A stretch of 64,000 nt of DNA from Escherichia phage Turkey3: the sequence record PQ471515.1. One strand, 5' to 3'. The stretch's first letter is position 1. The number at the start of each line of letters is the position of its first letter. A program made the position numbers and the translations under genes. Below, in pieces: positions 5,930-6,275 of the stretch. The notes below the pieces were generated by a model. That model saw only the letters and a list, made by a program, of their open reading frames with translations. It made no database searches and had not been told where the DNA came from.

Positions 5930-6275
5930 ACAATCAGACGTATATGGTGTAAGTTACGTCGATGTAATCCAGAACAAGATCTCTGGTACTCTAGGAAGTG
6001 GTGAATGTTAACCTAGACGGGTTTGATAATTGGACGATAGGCAATTATTACTTGACTAGCAGGTTTAAACTAGAGGTGACAGTCCTTTACCAAACTGGAA
6101 AACCGGATGGACTTTTATTTAAAAGGGTAAGGCGTGGAAATATGTTTACAGTAGTTGCTTTTAGTAGCCTGTACGCCCCACGTCAAGGTAGCCGAAAGGC
6201 AAGTTAAAACGGGTGGTTATAAAGCTGAATTAACAGCGGCGTTTAAAAGCGTCACCATCCATTTTTTTTAATTAA
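5930..6275 (+). ncRNA. candidate non-coding RNA (function unknown)
   Basis: About 350 nt without a convincing ORF, GC-richer than flanks, directly downstream of a consensus promoter, ends in a T8 run. Confidence 0.3.

Follow-up and report, generated by a model that had tools for sequence, protein, structure and literature searches.

What kind of gene occupies the approximately 350 nucleotides (nt) that follow a consensus-like promoter in the transfer RNA (tRNA) region of Escherichia phage Turkey3? The question concerns positions 5930 to 6275 of a 64,000-nt stretch of the phage genome (sequence record PQ471515.1), which is referred to here as the window and to which all unqualified coordinates refer. 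The tRNA islands of large virulent phages are discussed both as a means of codon supply and as a counter to tRNA-cleaving defences. To our knowledge, the RNAs other than tRNAs which are found in such islands are functionally unexplained, species 1 and species 2 of phage T4 since the 1970s, and likewise ROOL and GOLLD.

A preliminary description of the locus, drawn up from its letters and open reading frames (ORFs), had taken it for a single stable RNA beginning at 5930. The comparative analysis reported here leads us to conclude, with good confidence, that two genes for small structured non-coding RNAs, termed RNA-A and RNA-B, lie side by side within 5923-6270 and that each represents a new family; this confidence applies to the identity of the two as structured non-coding RNA genes and not to their function. 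RNA-A appears as the more notable of the two, with its well-supported covariation and its presence in three phage families. The stretch 5880-6290 is 97-100% identical to about 35 genomes of jumbo coliphages and Salmonella phages of the 121Q/PBECO4 group (genus Asteriusvirus), and the source phage of the window can be classed as a jumbo coliphage of this type.

Two separable RNA units among the tRNA genes

Seven tRNA genes, all on the + strand, were identified at 4716-9180 with ARAGORN and Rfam. The guanine plus cytosine content is 0.41 over 5950-6249 as against 0.27-0.33 in the flanks, the tRNA stretches having values of 0.41-0.47. Both the placement among tRNA genes and the richness in G and C of some 350 nt relative to their surroundings, as pointed out earlier, are thus borne out.

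Comparison of the region by blastn with 50,697 phage records splits it into the first ~190 nt (RNA-A) and the last ~150 nt (RNA-B), which have different distributions. Homologues of RNA-A were found in five phage lineages and in two metagenome contigs, the latter obtained from a single metagenome scan, whereas RNA-B is restricted in the blastn search to the genera Asteriusvirus and Alcyoneusvirus, with one of its hairpins present also in a few Kuravirus phages. The two units are also found apart. Within Asteriusvirus, EJP2 carries RNA-A without RNA-B, 25 nt ahead of tRNA-Ser, and JNE01 carries RNA-B without RNA-A, right behind the promoter box; in phAPEC6 and its relatives all that is left of RNA-A is its initial ~37 nt, joined to the ORF that follows, and RNA-B is absent. 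In RaK2, a 42-nt insert bearing a TTGAAC-17-TATAAT promoter separates RNA-A from RNA-B. Since close relatives lack one or both of them, RNA-A and RNA-B are accessory, and both appear to have moved between unrelated phage families. The A/U-rich linker between them in the window is likely to be an endonucleolytic processing site. The non-coding character of the stable RNA proposed earlier stands (covariation in both halves well above the slid-partner and shuffle controls, a broken reading frame), but two independent units take the place of one; the region is confirmed, with the conserved RNA beginning at ~5926-5929, slightly upstream of 5930. The features are collected in Table 1.

Table 1. Features of the promoter, RNA-A and RNA-B region in window coordinates (PK, pseudoknot; P and B, helices or hairpins of RNA-A and RNA-B; aa, amino acids)
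Feature	Position	Strand	Description
Sigma-70-type promoter	5890-5922	+	-35 TTGACT 5894-5899, 17-nt spacer, TG 5914-5915, -10 TATAAT 5917-5922
RNA-A	~5926-6112	+	Predicted structured non-coding RNA of ~187 nt; six helices, three pseudoknots
PK-A	5928-6001	+	5'-end CCAC 5928-5931 with GUGG 5998-6001 in the P3 loop; 100% paired
P1 hairpin	5937-5960	+	GACGUA 5937-5942 with UACGUC 5955-5960; two-sided changes in 4/6 pairs
P2 hairpin	5969-5986	+	CCAGA with UCUGG; length differs among lineages
P3 helix	5990-6017	+	UCUAGG 5990-5995 with CCUAGA 6012-6017; 99% paired; compensatory changes in 5/6 pairs
69-aa ORF	5998-6207	+	GTG start, without properly spaced Shine-Dalgarno sequence; start coincides with the 3' strand of PK-A
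P4 hairpin	6025-6049	+	GAUAAUUG with CAAUUAUU; loop GACGAUA near-invariant; compensatory changes in 4/8 pairs
P5 hairpin	6050-6064	+	ACUUG 6050-6054 with CAGGU 6060-6064; 100% paired
PK-B	6056-6073	+	P5 loop CUAG 6056-6059 with CUAG 6070-6073; H-type pseudoknot; 100% paired
P6 hairpin	6075-6091	+	GGUGA 6075-6079 with UUACC 6087-6091; 100% paired
PK-C	6082-6112	+	P6 loop GUCC 6082-6085 with 3'-terminal GGAC 6109-6112; H-type; 98% paired
Linker	6113-6125	+	A/U-rich CUUUUAUUUAAAA between RNA-A and RNA-B
RNA-B	~6126-6269	+	Predicted structured non-coding RNA of ~140 nt (B1, B2, B3) plus U8
B1	6131-6184	+	Long bulged hairpin; GGCGUGG 6131-6137 with CCACGUC 6178-6184; inner helices 6144-6176
B2	6191-6200	+	GCC-GAAA-GGC hairpin with GNRA tetraloop
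B3	6211-6260	+	Three-way junction; stem GGGUGGU 6211-6217 with ACCAUCC 6254-6260; arms 6224-6237 and 6238-6253
U8 tract	6262-6269	+	Right after the closing stem of B3

The covariance model for RNA-A (R1) matches the window once, at 5923-6119 (216 bits, E 4e-60), and scores of 162-222 bits were obtained across the homologues. Six nested helices were predicted with RNAalifold and the three pseudoknots were read by eye from alignment A3, a MAFFT alignment of 16 RNA-A sequences, not fitted to the structure, on which the pair counts were made; RNAalifold suggested one further, possible pairing of 2 base pairs (A3 columns 40-41 with 186-187). Standard pairs occupy 94.2% of the 740 cells as compared with 28-41% in controls with slid partners, two-sided changes are seen at 22 of the 47 pairs (3-7 in the slid controls), and the covariation score was reached by none of 500 shuffles, a figure which, given the relatedness of the sequences, cannot be read as a probability. 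The transcribed strand of RNA-A is fixed by 44 cells with G-U pairs on the + strand.

The changes recorded in the alignment include C-G to G-C in PK-A in all six Aeromonas-phage sequences, A-U to C-G and C-G to G-C or A-U in P5, and U-A to A-U in PK-B in two separate lineages. PK-C occurs in the variants GUCC/GGAC, ACCC/GGGU, GCCC/GGGC, AUCC/GGAU and UUCC/GGAA, which amount to at least four independent double changes. The pairing of P2 is kept in the shortened forms of Proteus phage 2, Shigella phage SdyM_006 and one metagenome copy (copy b), its Aeromonas rows being off by one column in the MAFFT alignment. The loop lengths of P5/PK-B and of P6/PK-C are those of classical H-type pseudoknots; one nucleotide separates the two, which could stack into one rod. 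Among the unpaired positions, the P1 loop is conserved as A(U/C)G(G/A)(U/C)GUA, and CGGGNUUG, the P4 loop, UUGAC/GCAG, CCUU.ACC and GAUGG are invariant.

RNA-A is 91% identical in T4-like Proteus and Morganella phages (the Proteus ones belonging to the genus Bragavirus), 86% in T5-like Proteus phages (Novosibvirus), 81% in RaK2-like jumbo phages of Klebsiella (Alcyoneusvirus) and ~80% over a core in T4-like Aeromonas phages (Ishigurovirus, Ceceduovirus), with flanks that are unrelated in each of these other lineages. Shigella phage SdyM_006, which also carries RNA-A, belongs with the T4-like group. The tRNA islands in which RNA-A is found belong to three phage families. It occupies the gap between tRNA-Gly and tRNA-Asp in Proteus phage PM2 and likewise in Pm5461 and SdyM_006, is flanked by two tRNA-Leu genes in Proteus phage 2, and stands right after tRNA-Pro and ahead of tRNA-Thr in Aeromonas phage 65 and its relatives. 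One metagenome contig has two copies on either side of tRNA-Arg and the other (L017) has RNA-A behind a 121Q-type promoter. The orientation is that of the tRNA strand in all cases. The RNA begins 0-3 nt past the CCA of the upstream tRNA in PM2, Pm5461, SdyM_006, Proteus phage 2, metagenome copy b and the Aeromonas phages. The next tRNA follows after ~2-25 nt in the Proteus, Morganella, Shigella and EJP2 cases, and after 54-85 nt for the Aeromonas copies and metagenome copy a.

Outside phages, neither RNA-A nor RNA-B has a match in 5,426 E. coli genomes, no pattern match was obtained in 185,579 GTDB genomes, and plasmids gave only one chance-level 32-nt match (E ~0.09); both RNAs thus appear to be phage-restricted. 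Three degenerate patterns each for RNA-A and for B1 retrieved only known isolate genomes from IMG/VR, and R1 has no match in the Kuravirus loci.

Several sequences adjoining RNA-A were noted in the course of this comparison. A conserved two-hairpin extension of ~90-100 nt lies between RNA-A and tRNA-Thr in Aeromonas phages avDM6 (locus L010, 680-767) and 65 (L004, 1586-1669) and is missing from the enterobacterial versions. In metagenome contig L017 (JACCDR011713278.1, ~600-770, - strand), a second 121Q-type promoter right after RNA-A precedes a distinct non-coding unit of ~170 nt closed by a 20-base-pair stem (AUCAACGGUGAGUAACAUUG ... CAAUGUUACUCACCAUUGAU), and an RNA-B homologue (157 bits) is found further along, past tRNA-Arg. 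In contig L018 (ERZ808232.1756, - strand), a ~120-nt non-coding sequence occurs twice upstream of RNA-A copy a, at ~2690-2810 and ~2870-2990, and may represent another RNA gene family. A segD-like endonuclease gene adjoins RNA-A in SdyM_006.

RNA-B, the B3 module and the promoter boxes

The covariance model for RNA-B (R2) matches the window at 6126-6271 with 171 bits, and the minimum-free-energy fold predicted for the window copy (z = -2.96) is the same as the consensus of six RNA-B sequences. Compensatory changes in B1 include G-C to A-U in KP13-7, C-G to U-A in L017 and GCUG/CAGC in Kuravirus phage XT18, B1 being the only part which is common to Kuravirus phages. The three helices of B3 are 100% paired over ten distinct copies, with compensatory changes and with G-U pairs also in use. 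These counts were made on alignment A7, of which only the B3 counts are trustworthy, since the sequences were fitted to the model and a tRNA-Ser row that is not homologous enters the B1 columns.

B3 is a recurring module. R2 detects it in RaK2 after tRNA-Ser and before RNA-A (L007, 5879-5977 and 7464-7625), and it is present in an unrelated 44-kb viral contig (L031, 3452-3563) between a hairpin terminator and an ORF. A search of IMG/VR with a B3 pattern gave 18 loci, two of them isolate genomes already in the set, and only L031 has the B3 fold, the others being weak, chance-level matches. RNA-B is thus composed of a specific part, B1 with the B2 GNRA hairpin, joined to a generic end module, B3. 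All copies of B3 contain, inside the fold, hexamers which resemble -35 (TTGACA/TTAACA) and -10 elements at 17-nt spacing. In the window these are TTAACA 6230-6235 and CACCAT 6253-6258 (8/12 match), and the RaK2 copy preceding RNA-A reaches 11/12; B3 may be terminator and promoter at once.

The T8 run with which the stretch was said to end is present. It is preceded by the 7-base-pair closing stem of B3 and one A, and since this stem is branched, enclosing a two-armed junction of 36 nt and not a simple hairpin, the site is omitted by a simple terminator scan. U8 is a probable intrinsic termination point, though a leaky one; its strength is uncertain because the tract of the RaK2 type is AAAUUUUAAUUU (AAAUUUU).

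The promoter described earlier as TTGACT-17-TATAAT has all its elements in place; it is of the extended -10 type, scores 11/12 in a consensus scan and has a predicted transcription start at ~5929 +/- 1. Hexamer pairs resembling the consensus are not enriched per se in the window (26 observed, 27 in shuffles). A 20-nt box, TTGACTAAATAGTTCAGTAC, is present in five identical + strand copies, at 5410, 5822, 5894, 6654 and 7546, as compared with 0.02 in shuffles, and two of the copies other than that at 5894 lie directly 5' of tRNA genes. The -10 element of the box at 6654 is exactly 7 nt ahead of the first base of tRNA-Ser (6689), on account of which the box promoters appear to be positioned for starts at the mature 5' ends of RNA genes.

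The five copies (5410-5429, 5822-5841, 5894-5913, 6654-6673 and 7546-7565) also carry AGTACT half-sites on their flanks, and the -35 hexamer recurs inverted within the spacer; the promoter which separates RNA-A from RNA-B in RaK2 is of the same design (TTGAACAAAATGTTCAA). A phage regulator may use the box as its operator. The copy at 5822 is without a -10 element; a Shine-Dalgarno sequence and a mini-ORF of 9 codons (5856-5885) come after it. As phAPEC6 and JNE01 have a single box at this place, 5822-5893 would represent a duplication or insert of ~72 base pairs in the window.

The B1 hairpin of Escherichia phage vB-EcoP-XT18 (Kuravirus; L005, 1154-1800) lies in a G+C-rich, non-coding mosaic of 650 nt, other segments of which are common piecewise to N4-like, 9NA-like and several Klebsiella phages, often near tRNA genes. 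The mosaic has no Rfam match and would seem to be one more reservoir of mobile RNA modules. A hammerhead-like CUGAUGA from the non-coding Kuravirus sequence was rejected, as it has no GAAA core and no Rfam match.

Possible roles and relation to known RNAs

In the model proposed here, the host sigma-70 RNA polymerase would initiate near 5929 at the extended -10 promoter and the transcript, comprising RNA-A, the linker and RNA-B, would mostly end at U8 past the three-way-junction stem, with read-through or weak initiation within the B3 junction feeding a downstream 123-aa ORF (6286-6657). Cleavage in the linker would part RNA-A from RNA-B. PK-A would tie the 5' end of RNA-A to the P3 loop and PK-C its 3' end to the P6 loop, so that both ends are buried; RNA-A should therefore resist both RNase E acting in a 5'-end-dependent manner and 3' exonucleases, and burial of the ends would be the source of its persistence as a stable RNA. 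In those phages in which RNA-A lies flush between tRNAs, its ends would be the work of the tRNA-maturation machinery, set by RNase P at the next tRNA and by 3' trimming of the previous one.

As to function, our tentative proposal, held with low confidence, is that RNA-A is an accessory trans-acting RNA, a decoy or modulator of a conserved component of tRNA metabolism, translation or defence. Its invariant unpaired nucleotides would be the binding site for a component conserved in Enterobacterales and in Aeromonas alike, which could be a part of the tRNA/translation machinery or a tRNA-targeting defence nuclease. A search for antisense targets found no complementarity above chance in the 64-kb window or to E. 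coli. It is less likely that RNA-A represents a new functional class, be it a machine of the tRNA island that works without protein (for instance a new tRNA-precursor ribozyme), a small self-assembling RNA resembling ROOL and GOLLD, or a decoy which neutralises a host defence nuclease directed at tRNAs; the extreme conservation of unpaired nucleotides, the locked ends, the tRNA-flush position, the horizontal spread and the presence/absence polymorphism within one genus fit all three versions. If RNA-A were self-assembling like ROOL and GOLLD, some of its three pseudoknots would be intermolecular bridges.

The preliminary description had likened the locus to the small stable RNAs of T-even tRNA clusters, and the likeness holds for genomic position and fails for homology. 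T4 rnaC and rnaD (species 1 and species 2), which are dispensable, are also small non-coding RNAs encoded in the tRNA cluster of a virulent phage, on the tRNA strand and abutting tRNA genes, and are presumably released by tRNA-processing enzymes. However, neither R1 nor R2 matches T4 70908-71171 (rnaC/rnaD), blastn of the window region retrieved no Tequatrovirus (T4-type) phage, and rnaC ends in a tRNA-like T-arm, CCGGGUUCGAAUCCCGG, which is absent from 5923-6270; RNA-A and RNA-B have no tRNA-like domain and are pseudoknot-based. Theta ribozymes are minimal folds of the hepatitis delta virus (HDV) type, a few tens of nucleotides in size. These HDV-like ribozymes are structured, pseudoknotted and adjacent to tRNAs of phages and viruses (PMC10879173), whereas RNA-A, of 190 nt, differs in helix order, has no match among the ribozyme models and can also stand behind a promoter where no tRNA precedes it.

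Phage and prophage genomes encode ROOL and GOLLD, 'often near tRNA islands'; these RNAs contain multiple pseudoknots and form 8-mer and 14-mer cages in which some covarying 'tertiary' pairs proved to be intermolecular (PMC12286853), which is a caveat on taking PK-A, PK-B and PK-C as intramolecular. RNA-A resembles them in being phage-encoded, in its proximity to tRNA islands and in its several pseudoknots; it differs in that ROOL and GOLLD, at ~580 nt and >800 nt, are 3-4 times larger and belong to other hosts, and their Rfam models have no match in the window at the gathering score, in 5800-6400 at E<=10 or in four other lineages at E<=1. The jumbo phage PA5oct, which is described as related to the 121Q/RaK2 group, expresses abundant non-coding RNAs of 236-619 nt as determined by RNA sequencing, two of which account for up to 5% of the phage reads (PMC7318152). 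PA5oct is thus a jumbo phage of a related group with abundant orphan RNAs, but R1 and R2 have no match in its ncRNA001 and ncRNA002 loci, and the stretch examined there has no tRNA cluster. No paper describing RNA-A or RNA-B was found; a catalogue of ~10,000 viral RNA candidates, all of <=151 nt, may hold fragments of them.

None of the rival explanations was considered better than improbable. One of them, a degenerate tRNA, transfer-messenger RNA (tmRNA) or other housekeeping RNA missed by the standard detectors, would suit the location in a tRNA cluster and the several pseudoknots, which tmRNA also has, and in our own comparison CGGGAUUG resembles the start of tmRNA helix 2. It is nevertheless hardly conceivable, given that ARAGORN finds no tRNA or tmRNA at the RNA-A/RNA-B stretch, that the Rfam models for tRNA, tmRNA, RNase P, 6S and signal recognition particle RNA are negative at E<=10, that a T-arm (GGUUCGAAUCC) and an acceptor/CCA end are absent, and that no E. 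coli genome shows similarity. The covariance-model scan proposed in the preliminary description gave matches to R1 and R2 and to no Rfam 15 family: only tRNAs and chance-level matches were returned at the gathering threshold over the whole window, at E<=10 over 5800-6400 and at E<=1 in five related loci including RaK2, PM2, Proteus phage 2 and Aeromonas 65. A translated small protein, from the 69-aa ORF or a shorter one, with conservation of the peptide as the reason for the pattern, was rated highly improbable. The ORF is indeed open in the window, as noted earlier along with its weakness and its want of a ribosome-binding site, and several GenBank records annotate a 'hypothetical protein' here. 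Yet, in keeping with the non-coding interpretation offered earlier, the frame is stopped in 14 of 15 homologues, namely RaK2, PM2, Pm5461, Mm5, SdyM_006, both metagenome contigs and all Aeromonas homologues, and is open only in Proteus phage 2; indels of 42, 2 and 1 nt fall within it in RaK2. The variable columns (22, 16 and 26 at codon positions 1, 2 and 3) show no third-position bias, the helices covary beyond any reading-frame need, and the three ORFs of the region belong to no PHROG or Pfam family, while both flanking ORFs have PHROG families. The 69-aa ORF is on these grounds to be regarded as spurious. A DNA-level element, be it a recombination or homing target, an origin, or promoters and operators with dyads, whose helices would be protein-binding palindromes, is also very improbable. 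The exactly spaced hexamers of B3, the RaK2 copy of B3 (11/12) which would place a transcription start on the first base of RNA-A, the dyads within the promoter boxes and the homing endonuclease genes nearby are in its favour; but the RNA-A helices are short, non-palindromic and interleaved as pseudoknots, the 44 G-U cells would be A-C mismatches on the opposite strand, the orientation matches that of the tRNA genes every time, and B3 uses G-U pairs as well.

The two remaining alternatives concern the role of the RNAs. RNA-A with RNA-B, or RNA-B by itself, could be a cis-acting 5' leader controlling the 123-aa ORF through termination at U8. No strong promoter is found between U8 and the ATG at 6286, so that the ORF would rely on read-through or weak initiation; JNE01 has likewise the order promoter, RNA-B, T7 and the same ORF, and GGCGU 6131-6135 can pair with ACGCC or with CCACGUC, in a switch-like manner. 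This explanation is improbable because in at least five lineages RNA-A is flanked by tRNA genes and precedes no ORF, and because the RaK2 gene after RNA-B is unrelated to the ORF of the window. Further, phAPEC6 appears to have the ORF homologue straight behind the promoter without either RNA, the double change in KP13-7 speaks for the outer B1 helix alone and disrupts the alternative, and B3 follows tRNA-Ser too. The downstream neighbour varies by lineage, being a tRNA, an unrelated ORF or another RNA gene, and there is no constant controlled gene. The other alternative, of a similarly small likelihood, is a self-cleaving or tRNA-processing ribozyme which cuts at the 5' end of RNA-A and frees the 3' end of a tRNA. 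The position 0-3 nt past the upstream tRNA in several lineages, the 5' end held in a pseudoknot, the many invariant unpaired nucleotides and the precedent of theta ribozymes beside viral tRNAs (PMC10879173) would accord with it. Against it, no self-cleaving ribozyme of Rfam 15 (HDV-like including theta, hammerhead, twister, hatchet, pistol) matches at E<=10 in the window, nor does any ribozyme family at E<=1 in RaK2, PM2, Proteus phage 2 and Aeromonas 65, the helix order in our own comparison is unlike the nested double pseudoknot of HDV, and host RNases suffice to account for the ends. In the window, L017 and RaK2, moreover, RNA-A stands behind a promoter and not behind a tRNA, and release of tRNA is therefore not its general role.

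Some results weigh against the interpretation as two RNA genes with an accessory trans-acting role for RNA-A. Folding of the single RNA-A sequence is unremarkable (z = -1.0) and does not reproduce the comparative structure, so that the structural case for RNA-A comes from comparison alone; folding of the whole 346 nt was uninformative on both strands (z = -1.7 and -1.8). The sole compensatory event in PK-A is at the level of one clade, and the pairings of PK-A, PK-B and PK-C could be intermolecular. The -10 element of the window is just 5 nt from UUCCAC, the spacing being 4 nt longer in RaK2 and L017, and a start at 5929-5930 drops one or two of the four PK-A pairs. RNA-B is represented by few independent sequences and lineages, the tRNA-Ser row of A7 inflates its B1 counts, and the conservation of B3 may be partly at the DNA level, as a promoter. 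Stable accumulation and the exact ends of both RNAs are deduced from sequence only. No computed result points to a specific binding partner, and no protein gene was found to co-occur with RNA-A across lineages: none of 14 window ORFs had a tblastn match in 16 related loci.

RNA-A is a small, tractable case of 190 nt with a well-defined pseudoknotted fold, and is present in culturable phages of E. coli, Klebsiella, Proteus and Aeromonas, with natural knock-outs in phAPEC6 and G17 and partial ones in EJP2 and JNE01. Its small size, the culturable phages and the natural knock-outs make the role of a tRNA-island RNA testable by genetics and structural biology. In about 70 phage genomes in GenBank the stretch is unannotated or given spurious 'hypothetical proteins', which R1 and R2 could correct.

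Other features of the tRNA region

A 174-aa ORF (6999-7523) with NUMOD4 and HNH_3 domains, between two tRNA-Ser genes, encodes a homing endonuclease; homing endonucleases could be a cause of the movement of tRNA-island modules between phages. A tRNA-Ser gene at 7585-7676 has the unusual anticodon ACT (ARAGORN; Rfam tRNA 49.9 bits), and phAPEC6 has the same gene. Three tandem, overlapping and paralogous 54-aa ORFs, each starting with MTHEEWM, are located at 4913-5077, 5074-5238 and 5235-5399 and are likewise annotated in phAPEC6. In the GenBank record of Morganella phage vB_Mm5 (L014, PP397179.1), the tRNA strand is opposite to that given by ARAGORN, which is probably an error of the deposited annotation.

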